This document shows positions 9,456 through 40,045 of a DNA stretch of 64,000 nt, one piece after another. Source of the DNA: a virus; the IMG/VR virus record IMGVR_UViG_3300043411_001575, positions 32,001 to 96,000 of that record; one strand, 5' to 3'. Under the pieces are notes generated by a model that saw only the letters and a program-made list of their open reading frames with translations, ran no database searches and was not told where the DNA came from. The first letter of the stretch is position 1; the number at the start of each line of letters is the position of its first letter. Position numbers and translations under genes: made by a program.

Positions 9456-9944
9456 ATGTTAAACAAAAGCAAAAAAGGATTACTTATTTTTGATAATTTT
9501 AGAGTAGACTACAATTTACCTAAATACAAGAAAAATAGTAAAGAAGAACAGGAATCAACGCCAAATGAAATTGGATTTATTAATATGGATTCTGATGAAT
9601 TTGATGCAGTTGCGGTTGGAGGATGGGGGTCATTTTTTTTCCAATATGTAACAAGAGATAATTATTCATTCTGTATGAAATGTACATACGCAGAATATGA
9701 AATAGACGGGGAGATTGTGGGTATAGACATATTCAAAGACCCTATTACCGATTCAGGAATGAAAAAATCAGCTCGTGGATTAACGGCAGTTTTTAAAGAT
9801 GAAAATGGTGAATACTACTTAAAAGACCAAGCCACTTGGGAAGAAATTAATAACTGTGAATTAAAAACGGTATTTAAAGATGGTAAAATCCTACATGAAA
9901 CTACACTAACTGAAATTCGTGAGCGAATCAAGCAAAACATGTAA
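9456..9944 (+). CDS. C-terminal fragment of nicotinamide phosphoribosyltransferase (NAMPT-like) on an unrelated N-terminus
   Basis: GSFFFQYVTRDNYSFCMKCT, IFKDPITDSGMKKSARG, VFKDGK...TLTEIRER match the NAMPT C-terminus; only 162 aa. Confidence 0.75.
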   Translation: MLNKSKKGLLIFDNFRVDYNLPKYKKNSKEEQESTPNEIGFINMDSDEFDAVAVGGWGSFFFQYVTRDNYSFCMKCTYAEYEIDGEIVGIDIFKDPITDSGMKKSARGLTAVFKDENGEYYLKDQATWEEINNCELKTVFKDGKILHETTLTEIRERIKQNM

Positions 9945-9947
9945 CCA

Positions 9948-10433
9948 ATGGCAGTTCAAAAACATAAAGATATTGACATCGGTGACGTGGTTCTACATAA
10001 AGACAAGGAGTTCTTGGTTGAGTATGTTTGGAATAACGTAATAGGTCAATGGTATTTCGATTTAAAAGCTTTAACTCCTGTATTAGAGGGATTAGATATT
10101 TATGCCAATGAAGTTAGTGTACCTAGTTACGATTGTATTCTAGTTAAAAAGAAAGAGGTTGATGTTCTTTTGTTTGCATTCAAACTAAGTGACTTGAAGC
10201 TAGGTGAAAAATTTAAGTTTAAAGAAGGACAAAAAGCATTTTACTATACTAATGGAACACAATCTCAAGAACTTGAAACAGAGGAACACATTGAGTTTAT
10301 TGTACTAAAACGAAATCCTACATCTGTTAAATGTAAGATGACTTGTGGTAGAATAGAATATACATTCAAGTTTTCAGGTTATTTCTCAGGTTACATACCT
10401 GTTGAAGATAATTTAATTATAGCTAAAACTTAG
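9948..10433 (+). CDS. hypothetical protein
   Basis: ORF in operon. Confidence 0.7.
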   Translation: MAVQKHKDIDIGDVVLHKDKEFLVEYVWNNVIGQWYFDLKALTPVLEGLDIYANEVSVPSYDCILVKKKEVDVLLFAFKLSDLKLGEKFKFKEGQKAFYYTNGTQSQELETEEHIEFIVLKRNPTSVKCKMTCGRIEYTFKFSGYFSGYIPVEDNLIIAKT

Positions 10434-13120: not shown

Positions 13121-13864
13121 TTACCAATTACCCTTACCTGAATGATAATCATTTAATCTGTTTTTTCTTTTTCCGTTACCTATATTCTTTCCGCAATAAG
13201 TAGGAGTCTGAGCATGGCAGTTAGGGCATATGTTTCTTATATTAGAAACTTTGTCATTTTCAGAATCTCCATCTATGTGGTCTAATTGTAATGGTATTTT
13301 ATTTCCCATCCAATCATGTAAACCGCAAACCATGCACTTGTGACCATTTTTATCAATTAGATATAATTTAAGTATTTTATTCTTACTCGTTCCTGATATG
13401 TTACTTTTAAATGTTCCATCTTCTATTTTTTTGAAATTATATAGTTTCCTGTGATAATAACTACATTCACGAGAGCAAAATTTAGCCACATGGTTTTTTA
13501 ATTTTTTTCCACATATTATACAATTTAATTTTTCCCTCCACATTGGATGACTATTTCCTGACATCAAATATTTATTATTACATTCTCTTGAACACGATTT
13601 AAAATCTTTGTTTTTAGAACCAATAGCCTTCTCGTACTCTTTTCCACAATGACATATACAAATTACTCTTTCATACTTTCTTTTATTAATATTTGAATTA
13701 AAATGCTCTATACTTAAATTAAATTTATCTAACAGTTTTTTAATTTTTTTCATGTTAGCTCCGTTAATACTTAATTTTAAAGCTCTACATAAATCACTTT
13801 TTGAATTTGAATTAATTAATATTTTTTCAAATTCTTCTTTTGTTATACTTTTAAAGTCTAGCAT
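13121..13864 (-). CDS. HNH endonuclease with Zn-ribbon repeats
   Basis: LQLDHIDGD..N..N...CPNCH. Confidence 0.9.
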   Translation of the reverse strand: MLDFKSITKEEFEKILINSNSKSDLCRALKLSINGANMKKIKKLLDKFNLSIEHFNSNINKRKYERVICICHCGKEYEKAIGSKNKDFKSCSRECNNKYLMSGNSHPMWREKLNCIICGKKLKNHVAKFCSRECSYYHRKLYNFKKIEDGTFKSNISGTSKNKILKLYLIDKNGHKCMVCGLHDWMGNKIPLQLDHIDGDSENDKVSNIRNICPNCHAQTPTYCGKNIGNGKRKNRLNDYHSGKGNW

Positions 13865-13930
13865 TTGGATGTCGATTTAATGTAAAGTTACAAATAAAAT
13901 TAAATAAAACAAACGTCATCTTATACTAAG

Positions 13931-14002
13931 TCGAAAGTATCGGACTTGAACCGCTCCTGATTACCCCAAATAACCTATGCTACCAATTACAACATACTCT
14001 CG
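13931..14002 (-). tRNA. tRNA-Pro(UGG)
   Basis: GGTTA-TT TGG GG-TAATC; C1-G72, A73. Confidence 0.85.
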
Positions 14003-14041
14003 ATATTATTAAATAAAATTAAAGAACGAATTTTTGAACAT

Positions 14042-14069
14042 AAAAAAACCCTGATGATTAGTCAGGGTC
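14042..14069 (-). terminator. attenuator terminator of Pro/Phe/Gln tRNA operon
   Basis: Minus strand ACCCTGA-loop-TCAGGGT followed by T run. Confidence 0.85.
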
Positions 14070-14097
14070 TCTTATTGTTTGTTTGTGATATATTTTT

Positions 14098-14190
14098 TCA
14101 CCCACACGGACAATACGCTCCTGACAACTGCAATCTAAACTGCGGTTGTTGAGGAAAAAATTGTTGAGTGTATGTGTTTGTTATTTTCAT
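14098..14190 (-). CDS. leader peptide MKITNTYTQQFFPQQPQFRLQLSGAYCPCG
   Basis: 30-codon ORF between TACTTTG promoter (~14195) and terminator; Q/F/P run matches downstream tRNAs. Confidence 0.85.
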   Translation of the reverse strand: MKITNTYTQQFFPQQPQFRLQLSGAYCPCG

Positions 14191-14270
14191 GATGCAAAGT
14201 AACGAAATGTTTTTTAATCTACCAAATTTATTTTGAATTATTTTTAAAAATATTTTATTAACTTCGTGAA

Positions 14271-14768
14271 ATGATAGTAATGAAAGGTGTTTGCGAAGTT
14301 TGTAATGATGGAAAAGAAAAGCAATTAGCTAAGAAAAGACCTCCTTTGTGTGGTTATCATTACTCAATTGAACAGCGAAAAAAATCTGCTGAGAAAAACA
14401 AAGACAAGCCAAAGAAAGTTCAAAAGCAATTAAAACGTACTCCATTGTCTTATAAAAGAAAAGCTACAGGAGAGCTTGAACTTATGAAGAGTATTTGGGA
14501 TAACATGGAAGAACATAAATCTTTCATTAGCGGAAATCCAATTTATGAATTCAATGTAAGTTGCATGGCACATGTATTAGCAAAAGCAAAAAATAAGTAT
14601 CCTAAATTTAAATTGAATCCTGATAATATAAAATTACTCACATACGAAGAACACTTCAAATGGGATAATGCTCCACGCTCTGAGTTAATAAAACTTCCTG
14701 AGTGGGACAAAATGTTTAAGTTAGAAGAAGAACTAAAACAAGAATATAAATTATTGTTTGGATTATAA
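14271..14768 (+). CDS. HNH-like nuclease domain protein
   Basis: N-terminal CxxC/CxxH; AHVLAK...NPDNI.LL...EH pattern. Confidence 0.55.
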   Translation: MIVMKGVCEVCNDGKEKQLAKKRPPLCGYHYSIEQRKKSAEKNKDKPKKVQKQLKRTPLSYKRKATGELELMKSIWDNMEEHKSFISGNPIYEFNVSCMAHVLAKAKNKYPKFKLNPDNIKLLTYEEHFKWDNAPRSELIKLPEWDKMFKLEEELKQEYKLLFGL

Positions 14769-14769
14769 A

Positions 14770-15264
14770 TTAATGCTTATTGTTATGCTTTTCCCGATGA
14801 TGCTTTCTACACAACCAATTTACTGTTAAAGGCTCATTGTAATCTTCATGATGCGCAAATGTATTTATGCTATCACATCCTTCAGTCTCGCATATTCCAC
14901 GAATTAATTTACCTGTCTTAACTGCGTAATATACCTTTTTTCTTGCTCTTATCTTTTCAGGATACCTTTCGCATTGGATTTTTTTATAGTGGTAATTGTT
15001 ATTTGATATGCCATCCTTCCAATTAGGATTATTTTCACCATCAAATTTATATTTTTCATGTATTATTTTAGCACTTTTTTTACCGTTCTCTATTCTAAGC
15101 TTACTAATTTGTGCAGTTGTTCTTTTAATATTATTCCTCATCATTATCCTTTCAATACCCCAATGAGTCATATTGAATTTTTCAGCGAGTACTGAATTAG
15201 ATAAATGTAAATTATTTGAAATAAATTCAAGCATTTCATTTTTTTGTTCCTTTGTTTTTCTCAT
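14770..15264 (-). CDS. HNH-like endonuclease (start at 15264; the longer ORF call runs through tRNAs)
   Basis: NPNWKDG, C..C..AHHEDY...WLCRKHH; own TATATTTG promoter near 15290. Confidence 0.8.
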   Translation of the reverse strand: MRKTKEQKNEMLEFISNNLHLSNSVLAEKFNMTHWGIERIMMRNNIKRTTAQISKLRIENGKKSAKIIHEKYKFDGENNPNWKDGISNNNYHYKKIQCERYPEKIRARKKVYYAVKTGKLIRGICETEGCDSINTFAHHEDYNEPLTVNWLCRKHHREKHNNKH

Positions 15265-15306
15265 AATACAAATATACATAAATCTTAGTAGTTGTACAAT
15301 AAAAAG

Positions 15307-15387
15307 TATCCCTAGCAGAACTCGAATCTGCAAGTCAAAGACAATGGTTTTTAAGACCATCCTGTTTACCAATTTCAGCATAGGGAT
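15307..15387 (-). tRNA. tRNA-Leu(UAA)
   Basis: ATGGT-CT TAA AA-ACCAT; variable arm. Confidence 0.9.
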
Positions 15388-15393
15388 ATTTTG

Positions 15394-15475
15394 TACAGAT
15401 AGAGGTATTCGAAACCTCATGCATTTCTGCGTATGATTCTAAATCATGTGCGTCTTCCAATTCCGCCATATCTGC
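15394..15475 (-). tRNA. tRNA-Leu(UAG)
   Basis: ATGA-TT TAG AA-TCAT; TGGCGGAATTGG D arm; variable arm. Confidence 0.9.
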
Positions 15476-15491
15476 ATTTGTTTTTTTATTG

Positions 15492-15564
15492 TTGGAACAC
15501 TAGGAGTCGAACCTAGATTAGCGGTTTTACAGACCGAATTCTTACCCTTAGAAATGATGCTCCA
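15492..15564 (-). tRNA. tRNA-Tyr(GUA), short variable loop
   Basis: CGGT-CT GTA AA-ACCG; CTAGGTTCGACTCCTAG T arm. Confidence 0.8.
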
Positions 15565-15570
15565 ATTTTG

Positions 15571-15656
15571 CGGAAACAGCAGGACTTCAACCTGCACGGG
15601 CTTTTATACCCCTAGCGTTTTTCAAGAACGTGTACCTCTGTCAATTGGGTGCTTCC
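15571..15656 (-). tRNA. tRNA-Ser(UGA)
   Basis: CGTT-CT TGA AA-AACG; long variable arm; G73. Confidence 0.8.
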
Positions 15657-15685
15657 AAATTATTTTATTTCAATGAACTGTTTTG

Positions 15686-15769
15686 CGGAGAGCAGTGGTC
15701 GTGACCCACACTCGTTTAACCGAGCCGACAACTTAGCAGGTTGCGCCTACCCTGATAGGTTTACTCTCC
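15686..15769 (-). tRNA. tRNA-Ser(GCU)
   Basis: CAAC-CT GCT AA-GTTG; GGAGAG acceptor; long variable arm. Confidence 0.85.
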
Positions 15770-15774
15770 TTTTG

Positions 15775-15847
15775 GGTAATATATCGGGATTGAACCGATG
15801 ACCTCTCGAATCACAATCGAGCGTTCTACCACTGAACTAATATCACC
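15775..15847 (-). tRNA. tRNA-His(GUG)
   Basis: CTCGA-TT GTG AT-TCGAG; G-1:C73. Confidence 0.92.
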
Positions 15848-15881
15848 ATGTATCTTTTTAAAGAACGAATTAATATAAAAC

Positions 15882-15912
15882 AAAAAACCCCAAACTTTTC
15901 AGTTCAGGGTTC
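15882..15912 (-). terminator. attenuator terminator of His/Ser/Tyr/Leu tRNA operon
   Basis: Minus strand AACCCTGAAC-loop-GTTTGGGGTT plus T run. Confidence 0.85.
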
Positions 15913-15933
15913 TTATCATGTAAACAAATATGT

Positions 15934-16011
15934 TTAACTACAATAGAGATTTTCCTGAACCGATTGCTTCGGATACAGCGACAAATAACTATGTAATGAT
16001 GTATTTTTCAT
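15934..16011 (-). CDS. leader peptide MKNTSLHSYLSLYPKQSVQENLYCS
   Basis: 25-codon ORF after TAATTTG promoter (~16020); S/L/H/Y run matches downstream tRNAs. Confidence 0.85.
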   Translation of the reverse strand: MKNTSLHSYLSLYPKQSVQENLYCS

Positions 16012-16099
16012 AATGGATGCAAATTAAAGGATTATTTATTTATCCGCAAAATTTATTTTTAATAAAAATCATATTGAATTGAAAATGAGTGAAATAAAA

Positions 16100-16321
16100 T
16101 TATTCGATGCAAATTAATTCTACTTTTTTGACTTTATCCCAAATCTTACCGAATGCAGTAGGATTCAACCCAACTTTTGCAGTCCAATTTGTAGGGGCAA
16201 TCCATTTCTGTCCATCGTGTAAATTACCCACAGAAGCTACAGAAGTACCTCCTCCTGATTTTTTCTTCCAATAAATACGGTACAAACCACATCTTAATTC
16301 TTTAACGTCTTCTTTTTTCAT
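16100..16321 (-). CDS. hypothetical protein
   Basis: ORF in minus operon. Confidence 0.65.
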   Translation of the reverse strand: MKKEDVKELRCGLYRIYWKKKSGGGTSVASVGNLHDGQKWIAPTNWTAKVGLNPTAFGKIWDKVKKVELICIE

Positions 16322-16331
16322 CTTATTTTTT

Positions 16332-16652
16332 TTAATTTAAAATACGTCTAACTTCAGGAAAACATTTGTCTAATTTATTCTCCCATTCTACTGAGTAACG
16401 TGAATAATAGTCCATGTTTCTATTTACTCTTTCAATAGCCTGCTCTCTTGTGAAATTGTTACATATCATACAGAATTCAATGTGAGTTTCATGAGCATCT
16501 TTAGCTAATTTAAATTTGTCTTTCATTAAAACATCTTTGAAAAACCAATCCATAAACCAATCATATACGATTGGTAATTCTTTTGTTGGATTAGCATTCC
16601 ATTCTTTTAATTCCTTTAATGATTTTATTCTTTTTTTCATTTTATAATACAT
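16332..16652 (-). CDS. hypothetical protein
   Basis: ORF in minus operon. Confidence 0.65.
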   Translation of the reverse strand: MYYKMKKRIKSLKELKEWNANPTKELPIVYDWFMDWFFKDVLMKDKFKLAKDAHETHIEFCMICNNFTREQAIERVNRNMDYYSRYSVEWENKLDKCFPEVRRILN

Positions 16653-17235
16653 TTAATTCTGAATATTCTGTACCCCAATTTTCAATAGCAGCTTCATTAT
16701 ATGCTTTAGCAGCATCTTCTTCACTTAAAAAATAACCTAAATGCTTTTTCTTGTAGTCTAATTTTATTGACGCAGACCACTTGTTAGCGAACTTATTCCA
16801 ACTGACTCCTTTATAAATACTGCTTGGAACATTACCATTAGCGGTTCTTTGTTTTTTCTCTTTATAGTGAGCTTTTTGATGGCTTATTAATTCAAGATTA
16901 TCTCTTCTTAAATTTAATGGATTCCTGTCTTTATAATGAATTACCGTTTTACCTTCTGCTTCAAGTAATAATTTAGCAAAAGGAGCTACAATTCTTTTTC
17001 CTTCTTTTGAAATCCAAAGTGCCATTACTGCTTGTCTCTGTTCATCAAACCAAATATCTTGTTGCCTGAGAACTTCATAATCAAAATCATCAAACTGAAT
17101 ATTTTTTCCGCAAGTGGTTTTTACCCATCTGAATTGGTCTGCAAAAATACGCATTGCCTTTACCACATCTTCAGATGTAAAACTATTATTCTCTTTCCCA
17201 AATAAATCTTTTATAACCTGTATCTCTGTTTTCAT
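16642..17235 (-). CDS. HNH-AP2 domain protein
   Basis: Degenerate HNH (HYKDRNPLNLRRDNL) plus AP2 (SIYKGVSW...W.A.I...HLGYF..EEDAAKAYN). Confidence 0.88.
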   Translation of the reverse strand: MKTEIQVIKDLFGKENNSFTSEDVVKAMRIFADQFRWVKTTCGKNIQFDDFDYEVLRQQDIWFDEQRQAVMALWISKEGKRIVAPFAKLLLEAEGKTVIHYKDRNPLNLRRDNLELISHQKAHYKEKKQRTANGNVPSSIYKGVSWNKFANKWSASIKLDYKKKHLGYFLSEEDAAKAYNEAAIENWGTEYSELNVL

Positions 17236-18141: not shown

Positions 18142-19194
18142 TTACTCTTCGTTATTGTAAAACACTTTGTAAAACTTCATTCCTTTTTCTTCATCAAAAC
18201 CTTTTTGAACTAGGTCATGTCTTCCATGAATGTAAAGATGAAAGTTCTTGTCTAATTTGATGATTCCTTTAAAATATTTCTCTTGTTTCTTTACCGCTGT
18301 TGCTGAAATTTCGAAGTCTTCAACATCATTTTTTACGTGATTAACTTCTTCACTAATTGTTCGGTATTCTTTGAAGCTATCAATTAATTCAGGTTGAGAT
18401 AAAACTTCTGCTTGAAACTCTTCTATGTTAAATCTATCCTTATCTTTAAAGTAGTTTAGTGACCTGTCTTTAATCAACATTTGGTCAACAGGCTCAACAT
18501 TGTTTTCTTGTGTTAAAACCTCTTCACAGAAATTATTAATTGTAGCTAACATGTTGTTTGTATGAAAGAATCTATCTTCACAAAGTTTTACCCCTAAGAA
18601 ATCTTCTGTCCAATATAAAGCTGCCTGAGCTATTTTATGACTATTATCAATGATGCTGATTTTATAACCATCTTCATTGTTAACATTGAATATCAAACAT
18701 CCCTTGTCAAGTTTATTGATGTTTATTCCATTCTCTGCTTCTACCTCAAAATTATCAAGGTTTTGATTTAATTTTAAGTATGTTTCTTTATTCTCCGACT
18801 TGAAGATTCCAATAGCATCACAAAGTTCTCCATCTACAACACAATCTCTGATATATGTCATAAAGAAATCACCACCTTTAATTTTAGGATGATTACTTTG
18901 GTCATAAAGACGTTGAGCAATCTTCTTAGAGTTTTCAAACATAGTTGATGGGTTATCAAACACATCTCGTACATACGATTGAACATCATAAATTTTAATC
19001 GCATCAGGCTTTCTGAATTGGAAATACACATCAGATTTAAAGGTATTCAGGAAGAAATGGTAAATAGTTTCCTTAACCCATTCATCGCCTATTTTATTAG
19101 GCATGTTTGCGAAGACAATCTCTTCTCCTAATCCTTTGTTACCAACGTAGTGTATTGCGATTTCGTTGGATTCACTTCTTTTAAATTCAATCAT
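18142..19194 (-). CDS. nucleoid-associated protein, YejK/NdpA family (Bacteroidota type)
   Basis: IHYVGNK, LY.QSNHPKIKGG, GIFKSENK, GININKLDKGCLIFN, YW.EDFL, IKLDKNFHLYIHG. Confidence 0.85.
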   Translation of the reverse strand: MIEFKRSESNEIAIHYVGNKGLGEEIVFANMPNKIGDEWVKETIYHFFLNTFKSDVYFQFRKPDAIKIYDVQSYVRDVFDNPSTMFENSKKIAQRLYDQSNHPKIKGGDFFMTYIRDCVVDGELCDAIGIFKSENKETYLKLNQNLDNFEVEAENGININKLDKGCLIFNVNNEDGYKISIIDNSHKIAQAALYWTEDFLGVKLCEDRFFHTNNMLATINNFCEEVLTQENNVEPVDQMLIKDRSLNYFKDKDRFNIEEFQAEVLSQPELIDSFKEYRTISEEVNHVKNDVEDFEISATAVKKQEKYFKGIIKLDKNFHLYIHGRHDLVQKGFDEEKGMKFYKVFYNNEE

Positions 19195-24423: not shown

Positions 24424-25487
24424 ATTTGTTTTTTATATCTCCTTACCCAAGAAGTAGCTCCACTCTTAGTTAGTCCAAATAAATTCATTATTTTTTTAAC
24501 TATTTTTTTATCATTTATATTAATGTTGTTTTCAGTTAAAATTTGAATTCTATTCTTATTGAACTTAATTGATTCATCTTTCATATTGTCAAAGTATCCT
24601 GATTTAGAACCATATTTCCTAGCCCTTGACAATCCATTTCTATCAGTCTTTTTAAAACACTTTGATTCATAAAAGTCAGGCATAAATTTAGACATCCATC
24701 CTTTAACTTTTTGTGGTATTAAGTCTGTTATTTCACTAACTCTCTTTGCCCATCCAAACTTAGAAAAATCAATATCTGAATTACTTATTATTTCTATTCT
24801 TTTAGAATGTATATTTTTAAAATTAAACTCATTAATACAATCAGTATATTCTTTACGTGATTTACTTTTAAATACTTCTTTTTTCTGTTTAATATAAAAA
24901 GAATAGTCAATATTACCCATATAATATTCATTCTTTAATCCTGAAATTAAATCACTTACAAATGATTTTTTATATATATTTGAATAGTGTATATCAAATA
25001 ATTTCCATCCTAATTCCTCTATTTCTTCTTTTCTTTTTTGATAATATTCTTTTAGAGAACCATCTCTATTATAATGTTGATTTCCATTTACCTCTATACC
25101 TATTTTTTTATCAGGGAATGCAATATCAATACTAAAAAACCTATTATCTAATGGTTTATACTCTTCTACAAAACTAATATCATTTTCAATAAATAACTTT
25201 TTTAAAATTTCACATGGTACAGATTTTAATTTTTCACTTCGTTTCCAAACGCATTTTTCAGGATTTTCTCGTAGATATAAAGACATTTTCAAACTTAAAT
25301 GCTTTCTTAATTCATCACTATGTTTTATTTTATGTTTTATTTTTTTGATGAAACCTTCTCTTTCAGCTCTATTTAATACATTTTTACCAATACCAAATTT
25401 TTTTGTTATTTTAGTCCAAAGTAATCCATTCTCATGTTCTGATTTAATTAAATCCCAATCTATTTTTGTTAAATCTAATCTCTTCAT
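24414..25487 (-). CDS. DUF559/Vsr-like PD-(D/E)XK endonuclease; stop codon lies inside tRNA-Arg 5' end
   Basis: IDIAFPDKKIGIEVNGNQHY...LGWKL. Confidence 0.8.
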   Translation of the reverse strand: MKRLDLTKIDWDLIKSEHENGLLWTKITKKFGIGKNVLNRAEREGFIKKIKHKIKHSDELRKHLSLKMSLYLRENPEKCVWKRSEKLKSVPCEILKKLFIENDISFVEEYKPLDNRFFSIDIAFPDKKIGIEVNGNQHYNRDGSLKEYYQKRKEEIEELGWKLFDIHYSNIYKKSFVSDLISGLKNEYYMGNIDYSFYIKQKKEVFKSKSRKEYTDCINEFNFKNIHSKRIEIISNSDIDFSKFGWAKRVSEITDLIPQKVKGWMSKFMPDFYESKCFKKTDRNGLSRARKYGSKSGYFDNMKDESIKFNKNRIQILTENNININDKKIVKKIMNLFGLTKSGATSWVRRYKKQMTI

Positions 25488-25527
25488 AATATTTATTTTT
25501 ATACAAATATATGAATATTATTTTTAG

Positions 25528-25617
25528 AATCCCCGATAGGAGTCGAACCTACATTATTCTTTTAAAAAGAAAGCAAAATTAGAAGTTTTGTGCATTATCC
25601 ATTTATGCTACGGGGAC
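25528..25617 (-). tRNA. tRNA-Arg(UCU) with extended variable arm
   Basis: CAAAA-CT TCT AA-TTTTG; extra TTCTTT/AAAGAA stem. Confidence 0.85.
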
Positions 25618-25691
25618 ATATATTTATCTACCTCTTCGCAATCTGCGAGAAGTAAAAAAAGTTTTTATGTGCCTTGTAGTTAACATTGAAT

Positions 25692-26093
25692 TTAATTTTT
25701 GATATGTTTATTAAAGGATAACATTAATCCATTTATATTTTCTTTTCCAACAGGATTAGCACTTTGAATATTATACAATGGTAATTTTAATTTATTATCC
25801 AAACAATATTCTACTAACCATTTAGCGCAATCATATCCTGTTTTTTCTTCTTTCTTTAATAATCTTGATTTTCTTTTACTCATTCCTTTTGCCCTAGCTT
25901 CTAAAGCAACTTCCATTCCTAAATCATGGTCAAAACAAATAGCTTCAGGTAATCCATTTTGGTTAATCCAATCAACAAATTCATTATAAGATTTAACCCA
26001 AATACAATCAAAAGGTTTTTCAATCGGACTATATGAAAGCCAATCTCCTTCAAAAGGATTTCTCAAATCATCTAACCATAAAAGTTTTTTCAT
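25692..26093 (-). CDS. cyclic-phosphate-processing receiver-like domain protein
   Basis: LWLDDLRNP, FDHDLG, TGYDCAKWLVE, SANPVG. Confidence 0.8.
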   Translation of the reverse strand: MKKLLWLDDLRNPFEGDWLSYSPIEKPFDCIWVKSYNEFVDWINQNGLPEAICFDHDLGMEVALEARAKGMSKRKSRLLKKEEKTGYDCAKWLVEYCLDNKLKLPLYNIQSANPVGKENINGLMLSFNKHIKN

Positions 26094-26107
26094 TTTAAAA
26101 ATATTTG

Positions 26108-26180
26108 TGGCTCAGGGGGAACTCGAATCCCCAACCCTCGCATTAAAAGTGCGATGCTCTACCGATTAAGCTACTGAACC
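26108..26180 (-). tRNA. tRNA-Lys(UUU)
   Basis: TCGCA-CT TTT AA-TGCGA. Confidence 0.92.
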
Positions 26181-26270
26181 ATATTAATAATTACTTACTC
26201 TTTCGCTTTCGCAAAAAAGAAGATAAAGATTTTATGTTTCTCGTAACTAACATTGTTTTATTTTTTTATG

Positions 26271-26342
26271 TACCCGTTGATAGAATCGAACTACCGACAT
26301 AATCCATGTAAGGGATTCGCTCTACCCCTGAGCTAAACGGGC
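26271..26342 (-). tRNA. tRNA-Val(UAC)
   Basis: AATCC-CT TAC AT-GGATT. Confidence 0.92.
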
Positions 26343-26352
26343 ATTTATTTTG

Positions 26353-26426
26353 TGGAGCGTACAGGATTCAAACCTGTGTAATCTTTCGTGCAAGGAAAGT
26401 GCATAGTCGGACTCTGCCAACACCCC
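26353..26426 (-). tRNA. tRNA-Ala(UGC)
   Basis: CTTTC-CT TGC AC-GAAAG; G3-U70. Confidence 0.9.
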
Positions 26427-26833: not shown

Positions 26834-27355
26834 TCATTTTTTAGCCTCGATTGATTTTTTAATAATAAAACTTATAGTTCCTTTGCTTTTAATATTTAGT
26901 TTTTCAGCTATTTGCTTATACGAAAGTCCTTCAATATGTAATTTAATTATCTCTTCATGATTGTGCTTCTTTACAAATGAAGTAGCTCTTAAAGCCATTT
27001 TCATTCTAACATCAGAAGGTTTATCCATATTGTTTTCTGAAGCTGTTCCTATTAAAATATTGTCTTTTGAATTATCTTTTTTATTCCCATTTAAATGCCT
27101 AACATGTACACCTTTTTTAAATATTTCATCTCCATATTTTTGATAAGCTACAAGACGATGTACCGAAACTTGTTTTGAAACAGATTTACCATCTATCAAT
27201 ATTCTTCTTGAAATATAGTAATATTTAGTCGTTGTATTAGTGGATAAATTATGCTTTCTTTTTTTATAAAAAACATTCCCTTCTTCATCAACCTTATATC
27301 CTACTCTAACAGCCTCTAATAAAGCTAATGTAGATATTGATTCTTTTATTTTCAT
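26834..27355 (-). CDS. HNH endonuclease with C-terminal HTH
   Basis: VHRLVAY...VRHLNGNKKDN..DN...GTASEN. Confidence 0.9.
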   Translation of the reverse strand: MKIKESISTLALLEAVRVGYKVDEEGNVFYKKRKHNLSTNTTTKYYYISRRILIDGKSVSKQVSVHRLVAYQKYGDEIFKKGVHVRHLNGNKKDNSKDNILIGTASENNMDKPSDVRMKMALRATSFVKKHNHEEIIKLHIEGLSYKQIAEKLNIKSKGTISFIIKKSIEAKK

Positions 27356-30246: not shown

Positions 30247-30318
30247 AGCCGTGAGAAGGAATCGAACCCTCGTGCGTAGATTACAAATCTACTGCTTTAC
30301 CAACTAAGCTATTACGGC
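30247..30318 (-). tRNA. tRNA-Thr(UGU)
   Basis: GTAGA-TT TGT AA-TCTAC; GCC start. Confidence 0.92.
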
Positions 30319-31025
30319 TAAAATGACTTACCATCTCTTGCTCTTTGTCTCCTACTATGCCTTCCATTACCTTTATTTAAAGCTTTATAATTCAGTGTTA
30401 GTGAATGGCAATTTGGACAAATTAACTCGACATTATCAGAATTATTATTTTTAGAATTTCCATCTTTATGATTTAGTTCAATTGGAACTTTTTTTGTTGT
30501 TTCATTTATTTCGTTCCAACCACACTTCATACACTTTTCACCATACATCAATATCAATGTTCTCTTTAATACAAAATCACTTAATCCGTCCGTATCATTA
30601 TTATTTATCCTTTCAATTAATTTTTTATTTCTGTAATCAGAGCAGCAAACAATAGAACAATATTTTGTAAAATTAGTTTTACACTCACTCTCACAATTCA
30701 CGCATTTTGGCTTCTCTTTTTTTTTCTTTCTAATTCTAAATTTATTAGAAAATGAAGCTGAACATGAATTATTACAAAATTTAGTTCTTACAACACGTTT
30801 GCCATTAATAAAATCAATATTACTAATAGAATTTCCACAATTTAGACACTCAATAATTTTCCTTTTCAAGTTTTCAGAGTAGTATCCTTCTCTATTCAAA
30901 TGATTTTTTATCAATCCCCATGTAAGATTTAATTCTTCCGATATTTGCATATACGTAAATCCTTCTTTAATCATTTTTTTAGCAAAATTTGATTGCTCAA
31001 TTGTTATTTTTCTATTAACACCCAT
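30318..31025 (-). CDS. HNH endonuclease; TAG overlaps first base of tRNA-Thr
   Basis: IELNHKDGNSKNN...N...CPNCHS; paralog of 13121. Confidence 0.9.
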   Translation of the reverse strand: MGVNRKITIEQSNFAKKMIKEGFTYMQISEELNLTWGLIKNHLNREGYYSENLKRKIIECLNCGNSISNIDFINGKRVVRTKFCNNSCSASFSNKFRIRKKKKEKPKCVNCESECKTNFTKYCSIVCCSDYRNKKLIERINNNDTDGLSDFVLKRTLILMYGEKCMKCGWNEINETTKKVPIELNHKDGNSKNNNSDNVELICPNCHSLTLNYKALNKGNGRHSRRQRARDGKSF

Positions 31026-31132
31026 TTGTTTTTAATAATTAGTTGAAATACAAATTTAACAAAAAAAATAAACAAAGTCAATAATTCAAATAAAACTATT
31101 GGCTCAATACATATTTTCAAAGAACGTAAAAC

Positions 31133-31186: not shown

Positions 31187-31297
31187 TTACACTCCCATTG
31201 TCGTAATTAAACAATACACAGATGCCCCTTGAGTACACGCCTTATCGCCCGTATTCTCTGACCACATATTTTCCACTATAATATTTCTGCGTTTCAT
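31187..31297 (-). CDS. leader peptide MKRRNIIVENMWSENTGDKACTQGASVYCLITTMGV
   Basis: 36-codon ORF after TATATTTG promoter (~31340); first 22 codons include all 13 amino acids of the downstream tRNAs. Confidence 0.85.
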   Translation of the reverse strand: MKRRNIIVENMWSENTGDKACTQGASVYCLITTMGV

Positions 31298-32713: not shown

Positions 32714-32728
32714 GCATCAAATATAAAC

Positions 32729-32760
32729 AAAAAACCTGAAACAATTAAGCTTCAGGTTTC
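32729..32760 (-). terminator. intrinsic terminator after tmRNA
   Basis: AAACCTGAA-loop-TTCAGGTTT plus T run on minus strand. Confidence 0.75.
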
Positions 32761-32764
32761 TTTT

Positions 32765-32985
32765 GAACCTCTTTCGAGGGCTGAGAATGTTCCCCACTAG
32801 GGAAGATTAAGCAGCTAATTTTACTTCGCCATTTAAGACTTGTGAGTTTCTAATTTAGTTTTCCTTACGCTGTCAAAACCGTGCGCACCCATGTGTAATA
32901 CTCATCATTGGTGGAAGCGGAGAGATTCGAACTCTCGTCCAAACATAACTATTAAAAAATTTCATGTATAAATACAAACGAAACT
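32765..32985 (-). ncRNA. ssrA: tmRNA, circularly permuted two-piece gene; tag (A)GEVKLAA
   Basis: T arm/acceptor GAGAGTTCGAATCTCTCCGCTTCCACCA ends at 32909; 18-nt spacer; 5' piece GGGTGCGCACGGTTTTGACAGC starts at 32890; G3-U70; tag at 32830-32807. Confidence 0.88.
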
Positions 32986-33210
32986 CGATGCAAATATACA
33001 AAATTATTTGATTAGTAAAAAAAGAAAACCCCGCAATGGAGTGAGCGGGGCTTTCAAAGGCAAACCATCTAATTTTATACGGTCAAATACTAGAGAAGAT
33101 GATGTGGTTGCGGTACAAATGTAGTAACATGATTCTAATCATTAAAAAATAAAATCAGTGCTTTATCAACATGGTTTTTAACATTCGTATTTATTGAATG
33201 CTTTTGTAAA

Positions 33211-38557: not shown

Positions 38558-39526
38558 ATGGAGAAAATAGATTTTACAAAAGAAGAGAGAACGATTATTG
38601 CTGATTTCATTCATGCAGTTAGTTCTGACACGTTAATTAAAACAGAAGCAATTGACTTAATCAATATTTTACATGCTCATGATTTAATTGAAGATAAATC
38701 AGATTTAGTTAAAAAAGTTGAAGCTCAAGATGATGGTATTGTTTCTGAATTAAAAACAATATTAACTACAAAGGTATCTAGCGAACAGGGTGGAGCTATT
38801 ATGGATGAATACTATGGTAGAGAGCCAAGACCTAATCAGGAAGAGTCTAAAGAAAAAGAACCTAAAAAACCACAACACTATAATTGGGGAGTGGGAAAAG
38901 AAGCGAACTCAAAAGCATGGAGAGACGTTAAAGTTCGTGGCGAAGATTACGAGTTGATTCATGGTGAGTTTCCGCACTCAAGACAGGATAATAATACTTA
39001 CGCAAGGAGCAAGGAAAATCCTGAAGAAATTTATGAATTTGATGGGCATAGACTTCCTTTTAAAATTGAAATAGAAGAAAGTAATTATATCAAACGCTCT
39101 GACCTAAGTGGAAATGAAATCAGAAAAGCTTGTAAAGGAAAATTATTTTTAAATGGAGTTCAAATTTATGAGTGTGGCGGACGTACATATGAATATACAT
39201 TCAAAAATATCGATAGATTCATTAATAGTATGGAAGAACAATGGTCTTGGTTTCCAAATAATTTGAATGAATACTTGGGTAAGTTAATTAAATATGAAGG
39301 TCAAATTTTTAAGATAGAAAGTTTCGTTGTCTCTCAAGCCTGTATGATTCTAGTTACTCCTGATGGAAAAGAAAGACAACCATTCGCTTCAGAAGTAGAA
39401 GATTTAGAAAATGGTAATTTTGACGGAGTAGATACATTGAAAGTGGAGATTAATAGCCCACATATTTGGTGGTTTTTAACCGAAAAAGAACTTGCGCAGT
39501 TTGAAGTTGGAGAGAAAGCGAATTAA
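38558..39526 (+). CDS. hypothetical protein
   Basis: 322-aa ORF. Confidence 0.8.
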   Translation: MEKIDFTKEERTIIADFIHAVSSDTLIKTEAIDLINILHAHDLIEDKSDLVKKVEAQDDGIVSELKTILTTKVSSEQGGAIMDEYYGREPRPNQEESKEKEPKKPQHYNWGVGKEANSKAWRDVKVRGEDYELIHGEFPHSRQDNNTYARSKENPEEIYEFDGHRLPFKIEIEESNYIKRSDLSGNEIRKACKGKLFLNGVQIYECGGRTYEYTFKNIDRFINSMEEQWSWFPNNLNEYLGKLIKYEGQIFKIESFVVSQACMILVTPDGKERQPFASEVEDLENGNFDGVDTLKVEINSPHIWWFLTEKELAQFEVGEKAN

Positions 39527-39598
39527 TTATGTTTTGTAAAAAATAATCACTAAATTTAATGATGTTTTTTTCATTTTTATAATCTTAAAAAAATAAAC

Positions 39599-40045
39599 AT
39601 GTTATCTAAAATATTTAAGTCAGAAAAGTCCAAAGAAGATATAGTTCAAGAACATTATATCAACAAGATAAAGACTATCACAGAGCATTACAATGGGGTT
39701 AGAATAAATGAGACTCTAGTTGGTAAAATAAGTGTCATGAAAAAGATGAGTGATATATTTGAAAGTAACAAAGATTACTTAATGATTTCAAAATCTCTTC
39801 CAAGACCTAAAATATACACAACAGATGAGAATGGTGTTAAAAAGGAATTCTTTTTTAATAACCCATCTGAATGGCTAATTTATATCCATAAGGAGTACAA
39901 AGATGTTATTGAAAAGTTAAAAAAATATGAAGACGAAGAAAAAGAAAGGTATGAATATCTAAAAAACAAAATGAACGAAGATGCACTAGGAAAAAAACGT
40001 GAGTTTTTAATGGAATATGGTCTTTTACCTAAAAATACAAATTAG
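39599..40045 (+). CDS. hypothetical protein
   Basis: ORF. Confidence 0.7.
   Translation: MLSKIFKSEKSKEDIVQEHYINKIKTITEHYNGVRINETLVGKISVMKKMSDIFESNKDYLMISKSLPRPKIYTTDENGVKKEFFFNNPSEWLIYIHKEYKDVIEKLKKYEDEEKERYEYLKNKMNEDALGKKREFLMEYGLLPKNTN

Follow-up and report, generated by a model that had tools for sequence, protein, structure and literature searches.

Attenuators of amino-acid operons, such as trpL, hisL, pheL, leuL, thrL, and ilvL, share an architecture consisting of a promoter, a short open reading frame (ORF), and a regulatory codon run. Their transcripts fold into the alternative helices 1:2, 2:3 (antiterminator), and 3:4 (terminator), and the run is placed just upstream of the point at which segment 2 becomes occluded. 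The leader peptide itself drifts, codon content and RNA pairing are kept, and thrL and ilvL sense several amino acids. The pheM leader of pheST uses leader-peptide attenuation to tie a part of the decoding apparatus to the level of charged tRNA. T-box riboswitches also sense tRNA status and switch between terminator and antiterminator ahead of translation-apparatus genes. For the tRNA genes of phages, the current explanations (codon bias, host tRNA decay, and escape from anticodon nucleases) account for their presence and not for the control of their timing and dosing. Here, we describe a unit that resembles these systems in a 64,000-nucleotide stretch of viral DNA (the window), which comprises bases 32001-96000 of one 169,658-bp virus record (IMG/VR record IMGVR_UViG_3300043411_001575, hereafter G000), 30.7% G+C. 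A leader ORF rich in Ser, Leu, His, and Tyr codons stands before six tRNA or tRNA-like genes for the same four amino acids. Judging from sequence comparison and folding models, we consider it likely that this unit gates a phage tRNA operon as a trp-type transcription attenuator of the ribosome-mediated, leader-peptide kind.

The Ser/Leu/His/Tyr leader and its predicted switch

Read along the minus strand, the unit consists of promoter-like sites, a 25-codon ORF, an intrinsic terminator, a conserved box, and the six tRNA genes (Table 1). The ORF reads ATG AAA AAT ACA TCA TTA CAT AGT TAT TTG TCG CTG TAT CCG AAG CAA TCG GTT CAG GAA AAT CTC TAT TGT AGT TAA, and its codons 5-13 stand exactly as the initial annotation of this DNA wrote them. 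The promoter-like sites of G000 have the Bacteroidota form TTTG-N19-21-TAnnTTTG; here, TTTG-N19-TTAATTTG ends 8 nt before the leader AUG (ATG at 16011). The pattern TTTG-N17-21-T[AT]nnTTTGCA occurs in seven copies in the genome, four of them on the leader strand, and three of these four precede leaders. We infer from the sequence that the TTTG/TTAATTTG sites are used as promoters.

The composition of the leader departs from chance. Runs of at least nine {S,L,H,Y} codons are found six times among the 339,312 codon positions of the six frames of the 170-kb genome, and codons 5-13 form the only one of the six that holds all four amino acids. Across the whole peptide, 13/24 residues belong to this set, compared with 20% expected (z=4.1). 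Downstream of the run, the leader segment GGUUCAGG has a pairing partner in the terminator arm. The GUUCAGG of codons 17-20, which had been noticed as a match to the terminator, and CCUGAAC in its 5' arm are exact reverse complements, and the pairing grows to 10 bp between leader nt 49-58 and nt 104-113, that is, the terminator 5' arm and two loop bases. This duplex between ORF and terminator arm reaches -12.3 kcal/mol, compared with -6.1 +/- 2.0 in dinucleotide-shuffled ORFs (P=0.013), and the leader region as a whole folds with z=-3.6.

In our folding model, the ribosome is represented by a stretch kept unpaired, which extends 15 nt upstream and 14 nt downstream of the first A-site codon base, and the moment of decision by the partition function of a transcript cut just before the 3' arm of the terminator. 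The probability that the terminator 5' arm is paired upstream is 0.83 with codons 1-12 in the A site, and declines to 0.74, 0.49, and 0.15 at codons 13, 14, and 15, respectively. The same modelled collapse at the end of the regulatory run is seen in 10/10 leaders and in the orthologs on contig L161, which is described below. Structurally, the predicted antiterminator is a two-part stem of -24.4 kcal/mol, whose inner stem includes the conserved TATTGT block present in 3/3 leaders of G000, compared with -16.7 kcal/mol for the terminator (14-pair stem and U tract, span 15914-15874). In full-length minimum-energy folds, the antiterminator wins with the ribosome at most of codons 2-12, and the terminator wins once the ribosome has reached codon 13 or beyond, the stop codon included, as well as in ribosome-free RNA. 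A decoy copy of the terminator 3' arm is located in the 3' third of the leader ORF in 20/20 leaders.

Leader composition follows the downstream tRNA set

The strongest argument against chance comes from two further units of this kind in G000, which make three in all. Sister leader 1 carries the run QQFFPQQPQF, a stretch of 10 {P,F,Q} codons without a second example in the six frames of the genome, and the switch obtained with the masked ribosome is reproduced in it. Sister leader 3 accommodates all 13 amino acids of the 16-tRNA stretch behind it inside 21-22 codons, as do 17/107,771 windows, and its near-pangram part is free of F, H, L, P, and Y. Because the runs or contents of all three units match, the three leaders divide the 20 amino acids exactly as the tRNA sets do. 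We conclude that the match of leader and tRNA set is genuine and goes well past anything expected by chance.

L161, a 31-kb ENA contig of a closer relative that was reached via an NdpA-like gene (73% identical), carries an ortholog of each of the three units. Its unit 2 starts at 9869, reads ATG AAA AAT TTA TAT CTA CAT AGT TCG TTG TAT CTA AGC CCA AAA GGT TCA GGT GAC TTT CTA TTG TAG, and precedes tRNA genes for His, Ser-GCU, a Ser-UGA-like gene, Tyr, Leu-UAG, and Leu-UAA. The peptide consists of MKN, LYLHSSLYLS, and an unrelated tail. The run (TTA TAT CTA CAT AGT TCG TTG TAT CTA AGC) is pure S/L/H/Y, and both its residue order and its codons differ from those in the window. A 5-nt indel after the run shifts the reading frame, and the C-terminal peptide is not conserved. 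GGTTCAGG and CTATTGTAGTTAA are kept base for base despite this frame change, the stop codon (TAG in L161) falls inside the CTATTGTAGTTAA block in either frame, and each terminator arm has lost one matching base with the stem kept. Since the run is reshuffled and the RNA blocks persist across the frameshift, selection appears to act on codon content in the first part of the leader and on RNA pairing in the second, not on the peptide. As far as the sequences tell, codon content and RNA pairing kept without the peptide is the signature of attenuator leaders.

Two distant relatives, G002 (362 kb) and G006 (366 kb), share 44% and 36% marker identity with the phage of the window, respectively, and 52% with each other. 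Their tRNAs are grouped otherwise than in G000, and their leaders differ correspondingly (Table 1). No recognisable leader unit was found for the K/Y block of G006, and no clear leaders were found in G007. In G004, the tRNA array begins at the contig end. An Arg/Met-rich ORF of G001 was considered as a leader and rejected, as it lies inside another gene and is without a terminator.

A box of the form (C)GTTCTTT(A/G)A follows all three G000 terminators, ahead of the first tRNA or other downstream gene (window 15858-15867, 14020-14029, and 31117-31126, minus strand). On L161, the full box stands at the terminator of unit 2 (about 10008-10017), and a GTTCTTT core is found after the terminators of the unit 1 and unit 3 types. 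The box is present in G006 and absent in G002, where the tRNA directly follows the terminator. It could represent a processing signal, a pause signal, or a second transcription entry point. In a by-eye comparison with promoter elements, CGTTCTTTAA fits neither the Bacteroidota -7 nor the sigma-70 type.

For an independent set, the only criterion applied to IMG/VR was TTTTTGTTTT as a terminator tail with the box, GTTCTTTRA, 0-12 nt behind it. Among the 119 matches listed, at least 12 are tRNA-associated contigs, and in 11 of these the array begins 7-300 nt past the box (7-35 nt, with three cases at about 120-300 nt). At least 10 distinct units are obtained once the duplicates L075/L130 are merged, of which nine are non-redundant, L111/L115 being an orthologous pair. 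An upstream short ORF (seven start with MK), a terminator, and a matching composition are found in 10/10 listed units. For example, ...SALVALLWADNDVDEL... precedes tRNAs for D, V, E, L, A, and W, and MKTTIKHMVFSTQQKSICWYERMR... precedes exactly E, V, F, K, C, W, Y, M, Q, R, H, S, and I. Some of the listed units carry sigma-70-type promoters, and the device is therefore not confined to one host group. When every leader was paired with every tRNA set in 100,000 permutations, the matched z-sum was 45.2 compared with 0.7 +/- 5.8 for permuted pairs (P<1e-5). The independent set alone gave 16.6 compared with 3.0 +/- 2.9 (P<1e-5), with 0/100,000 permutations reaching the observed value. In every phage examined, the composition of the leader follows its own downstream tRNA set, which applies to the sister units and to 20 leaders of other phages.

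Outside these sets, Prevotella phage Lak-A1 (MK250015.1; L159) contains a 37-codon near-pangram ORF, MRQFNNIYKNNVDIYADSFNWYEQVRCACMLRDIVNS, at 39528-39640 (-), and a strong terminator near 39448-39490; directly behind them, tRNA-Trp opens a stretch of 18 tRNAs. Going by this ORF and terminator, Lak-A1 probably carries the same leader device.

Proposed mechanism, isoacceptors, and competing explanations

We postulate that host RNA polymerase would start at the Bacteroidota-type promoter and that a ribosome would start on the nearly leaderless AUG. With scarce Ser, Leu, His, or Tyr aminoacyl-tRNAs, decoding of codons 5-13 would slow, and the ribosome would be held upstream of leader nt 49-58. 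The freed strand would then pair with the terminator 5' arm, and the resulting antiterminator would allow read-through into the His, Ser, Ser, Tyr, Leu, and Leu genes. Under fast decoding, the ribosome would instead cover segment 2, or melt the inner stem at the stop codon, so that the terminator forms and transcription stops. Candidate triggers are a fall in host tRNAs, caused by shut-off or by anticodon nucleases, and a mismatch with the AT-rich codon demand of the phage. Because the gated genes are the tRNAs that read the run, read-through would relieve the stall and would therefore act as negative feedback on tRNA supply. On this model, the phage probably makes the six tRNAs only when ribosomes slow on the leader codons; leader translation, the direction of the switch in vivo, and its trigger are what we infer.

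At the sequence level, the unit contains a promoter-like site and ORF, a cognate codon run, a terminator, an antiterminator, the modelled geometry, and the conservation pattern of an attenuator. The attenuator reading put forward in the initial annotation is thereby supported: each structural element is present, the geometry is right, and the two sister units match their own tRNA sets. Several observations weigh on the other side. Without a ribosome, the truncated transcript already prefers the antiterminator (0.83), and the untranslated default may be read-through rather than a trp-like super-attenuation; because the antiterminator is preferred before the 3' arm exists, the untranslated outcome depends on folding kinetics. 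When the ribosome stands at the stop codon, the inner stem alone is melted and segment 2 stays uncovered, and termination therefore rests on timing. At equilibrium, the terminator prevails in many sister leaders wherever the ribosome is placed, and the switch must therefore be kinetic; for most of them, it is seen only in the co-transcriptional (truncated) model and not in full-length equilibrium folding, as their terminators are too strong. Furthermore, one of the six tRNAs scores under gene-finder thresholds, anticodon coverage is imperfect in the G002/G006 pair, and the large leader of G006 leaves 4/20 anticodon classes unsampled. Finally, the box could provide a second entry point, which is the main remaining rival for the expression of the tRNAs.

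The initial annotation had gone further and proposed that the leader samples exactly the six downstream tRNAs, and hence senses tRNA species rather than amino acids. Five of the six tRNAs are ARAGORN calls that agree with this list; the sixth, Ser-UGA, is a divergent tRNA-like gene that the program does not call. In synonymous shuffles, the amino-acid sequence was held fixed and the codons were redrawn from phage usage (TCG 4% of Ser codons, CTG 2% of Leu, TCT 27%, CTT 19%). Codons 5-13 sample 6/6 anticodon classes (chance 0.14), and all nine can be decoded by the six tRNAs when standard wobble is allowed (chance 0.17), giving P of about 0.05 for the two together. Both properties recur in the reshuffled run of L161 (P about 0.04-0.05), and the common codons TCT and CTT, which standard wobble leaves outside the reach of the six tRNAs, are avoided in both orthologs of unit 2. 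In leader 3, CGC stands beside AGA and ATT beside ATA, one for each member of the Arg and Ile tRNA pairs, as is the case in its ortholog, and 15/15 anticodon classes are covered (P=0.018). In G002, the Thr codons ACC, ACA, and ACG face tRNAs with GGU, UGU, and CGU; this phage also has a Pro-CGG tRNA and a CCG codon, and G006 has neither. When the seven non-orthologous leaders of G000 and G002 are pooled, 58/60 classes are sampled compared with 50.5 +/- 2.2 expected (P=0.0003). In the comparison of orthologous leaders that had been suggested earlier as a check, the L161 leader again samples the six anticodon classes with only wobble-readable codons. Against the isoacceptor reading, single positions change class freely between the orthologs; coverage is kept and not position. 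As a whole, isoacceptor-level reading is supported in aggregate by the pooled coverage; it is plausible for the leader with codons 5-13, where the signal taken alone is weak, and it is not proven.

The weak match of the Ser/Leu/His/Tyr leader by itself (coverage P=0.14) and the 4/20 anticodons missed by G006 would also suit a sensor of general translation capacity or of starvation for amino acids, in which any slowing of the leader ribosome, be it from a shortage of amino acids or ribosomes or from a defence that targets translation, opens the operon and the codons only mirror the amino acids of the block. In trp and his attenuators, the leader ribosome reads the supply of aminoacyl-tRNA and cannot tell a missing tRNA from a missing amino acid. 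We nevertheless consider such a sensor unlikely, since the pooled coverage exceeds the synonymous-shuffle expectation (58/60), TCT and CTT are avoided in both orthologs of unit 2 (P about 0.04-0.05 each), and the paired Arg and Ile codons recur in leader 3 and its ortholog. Moreover, the regulated genes are tRNAs, whose output corrects only a tRNA shortage.

Promoter, short ORF, and strong terminator could, on the other hand, form a self-contained unit for a micropeptide or small RNA, with the tRNAs starting separately after the terminator, for instance at CGTTCTTTAA. The conserved box between terminator and tRNA would suit this arrangement, as would a further promoter-like TAAATTTG after the terminator of unit 3. 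It is nonetheless improbable, as it fails to account for a leader composition that tracks the tRNA set or for the terminator-arm decoy within the ORF. In addition, the C-terminus of the peptide is not conserved while the RNA is, and the box resembles neither TAnnTTTG nor TTGACA/TATAAT promoters and is absent in G002, where the tRNA begins 4-10 nt past the terminator. Direct sensing of tRNA without translation, with the codon run serving as specifiers, is very improbable. T-box leaders do switch between terminator and antiterminator on tRNA, and the run does display codons of the six tRNAs. However, neither a T-box nor any other Rfam leader family was matched at E<=1 over 15280-16100, a T-box motif is lacking, the run stands in an AUG-to-stop frame in every case, and the predicted switch point tracks the ribosome footprint. 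We know of no precedent for nine to thirty different specifiers in one leader. A chance ORF beside the terminator of upstream genes is hardly credible: AT-rich DNA abounds in short ORFs, and the codons for S, L, H, and Y are themselves rich in A and T, but the six-frame genome null, the permutation tests, the conserved ortholog, and the three matching units in one genome all contradict it.

The tRNA region and comparison with described systems

Table 1 Features of the Ser/Leu/His/Tyr unit, its sister leaders, and leaders of the distant relatives G002 and G006 (window coordinates).
Feature	Position	Strand	Remarks
Promoter -33-like TTTG	16047..16050	-	19 nt upstream of the -7-like box; layout recurs at both sister leaders
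Promoter -7-like box TTAATTTG	16020..16027	-	Bacteroidota consensus TAnnTTTG with one mismatch; followed by CATCCATT, then ATG
Leader ORF MKNTSLHSYLSLYPKQSVQENLYCS	15934..16011	-	25 codons and stop; stop at 15936-15934
Regulatory run, codons 5-13 (SLHSYLSLY)	15973..15999	-	TCA TTA CAT AGT TAT TTG TCG CTG TAT
Antiterminator strand (segment 2) UCGGUUCAGG	15954..15963	-	Leader nt 49-58
Conserved RNA block CTATTGTAGTTAA	15934..15946	-	Contains stop codon; antiterminator inner stem, part of 1:2 hairpin
Intrinsic terminator hairpin	15883..15914	-	5' arm 15914-15901, loop GAAA, 3' arm 15896-15883; tail TGTTTTAT
Conserved box CGTTCTTTAA	15858..15867	-	Between terminator and first tRNA
tRNA-His (GUG)	15774..15846	-	ARAGORN; first gene behind terminator
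tRNA-Ser (GCU)	15685..15769	-	ARAGORN
Divergent tRNA-like gene, anticodon UGA (probable tRNA-Ser-UGA)	15572..15656	-	Missed by ARAGORN; conserved in L161
tRNA-Tyr (GUA)	15491..15564	-	ARAGORN
tRNA-Leu (UAG)	15393..15475	-	ARAGORN
tRNA-Leu (UAA)	15306..15387	-	ARAGORN
Sister leader 1 MKITNTYTQQFFPQQPQFRLQLSGAYCPCG	14098..14190	-	Terminator 14068-14048; before tRNA-Pro, -Phe, -Gln
Sister leader 3 MKRRNIIVENMWSENTGDKACTQG...	31187..31297	-	Terminator 31164-31134; before 16-tRNA stretch
Distant relatives: MKKIVNVVPQPQHQPQ... and MKTLVNIALQHPQHQPQ...			Before Pro, His, Gln tRNAs (PQPQHQPQ)
Distant relatives: MKKSYSYKTYKK...			Before Tyr, Lys tRNAs (KKSYSYKTYKK)
Distant relatives: ...LETLAMESVVALAMVEDDA... 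and ...LEALALNAMAVALVEDDM...			Before Asp, Leu, Ala, Glu, Met, Val tRNAs (VVALAMVEDDA)
Distant relatives: MKSLMSNISRINWCGSTITGGISTLNFRGSNS...			10 amino acids; before 28 tRNAs for W, F, T, R, I, S, N, G, L, C

All 24 ARAGORN tRNA genes of G000, together with a permuted transfer-messenger RNA (tmRNA), fall within window positions 12892-33002 (minus strand), and the tRNA set covers 20/20 amino acids. The tRNA-like gene with anticodon UGA, 15656-15572 (-), is called by neither ARAGORN nor the Rfam tRNA model, and the tRNA-Sec model gives it a score of only 21.9 bits. Folded unaided, it forms a cloverleaf whose variable arm is long and whose anticodon loop reads CUUGAAA. The L161 counterpart is ~95% identical amid diverged spacers, and an acceptor-stem G.U is replaced by G-C. 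The gene is probably a divergent tRNA-Ser(UGA), going by fold and conservation, and probably the sole reader of TCN serine codons in the phage. Between G000 and L161, the His and Tyr tRNA genes are strongly different and the Ser and Leu genes nearly identical, a pattern that suggests piecemeal replacement of tRNA genes. ORFs resembling HNH or HNH-AP2 homing endonucleases lie between the tRNA genes (13121-13864, 14770-15261, 16642-17235, 26834-27355, and 30318-31025, minus strand). On L161, two IS605 OrfB/TnpB-like genes and a resolvase (13363-17050) adjoin the tRNA region.

The tRNA region includes, at window 25692-26093 (-), the gene of a cREC_REC (cyclic-phosphate processing receiver) protein, and an RtcB RNA ligase is encoded outside it, at genome positions 25001-26362 (L003:5001-6362). 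Together, the two resemble an RNA-repair kit and suggest that the phage meets tRNA-cleaving defences. The permuted tmRNA (tag GEVKLAA; window 32716-33002, minus strand) lies directly upstream of the third attenuator and may be relevant to leader-stalled ribosomes. RtcB, cREC_REC, and tmRNA are consistent with a way of life in which damaged tRNAs and ribosome stalling are of consequence. tRNAs with the anticodon CUA, of the amber suppressor type, occur in G002, G006, and G007 (L021-L024, L035, and L036) and are absent from G000; they hint at stop-codon recoding in the three phages that carry them.

An NdpA-like nucleoid-associated protein (PF04245) is encoded at window 18142-19194 (-). It is 50-64% identical to proteins of which several are named as from Bacteroidota; the gene looks host-derived and useful as a marker for relatives and host phylum. 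By a marker protein of the phrog_2087 family (33-37% identity), G000 is distantly related to Prevotella Lak phages and Tenacibaculum jumbo phages. The Tenacibaculum phages are poor models, since PTm1 is without tRNAs and pT24 has four odd ones. DNA comparison with the INPHARED phage set revealed no close relative of G000, and an exact tRNA-His word had no match in IMG/VR. The 73-aa upstream neighbour gave only non-syntenic matches, both in IMG/VR and in a scan of a single metagenome, and the 197-aa neighbour gave none.

An attenuator reading the codons served by its own genes would follow a simple feedback rule and would be the first classic attenuation on tRNA genes. Such a device predicts which stress opens which block, and would offer compact natural sensors for single tRNA species. 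In annotation, leader content would predict operon boundaries, and it backs the tRNA-Ser(UGA) gene missed by gene finders. More tentatively, many tRNA-rich phages with varied host promoter types might hold their tRNA blocks as demand-controlled modules behind leaders that sample every isoacceptor of the block, and loss of any one tRNA species, whether by host shut-off, by an anticodon-nuclease defence, or by codon mismatch, would then switch on exactly the block that replaces it; such a phage-borne, isoacceptor-resolved tRNA homeostat is a prospect about which we remain slightly more doubtful than confident.

Compared with described systems, the unit stands apart in several respects. It functions like the His, Trp, Thr, and Leu leader families of Rfam but matches none of them in sequence, and our search of the full-text literature brought up no account of tRNA genes under the control of a leader peptide. 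T-box riboswitches rely on direct contact between RNA and tRNA, a single specifier codon, and a T-box motif, and act without translation, features that are absent in the phage unit. The pheM leader, in contrast, is chromosomal, senses a single amino acid, and targets a synthetase, with no tRNA gene behind its terminator. Unlike the attenuators of amino-acid operons, the phage-borne unit would regulate tRNAs and not enzymes, and its loop would close on tRNA abundance. It would further operate on a nearly leaderless mRNA without a Shine-Dalgarno sequence, in the Bacteroidota style, with up to 13 amino acids per leader and codon classes that appear matched to anticodons. As a whole, the tRNA cargo, the phage setting, the nearly leaderless mRNA, the number of amino acids in one leader, and the anticodon-matched codon classes are what is new in this variation on a classical regulatory design.

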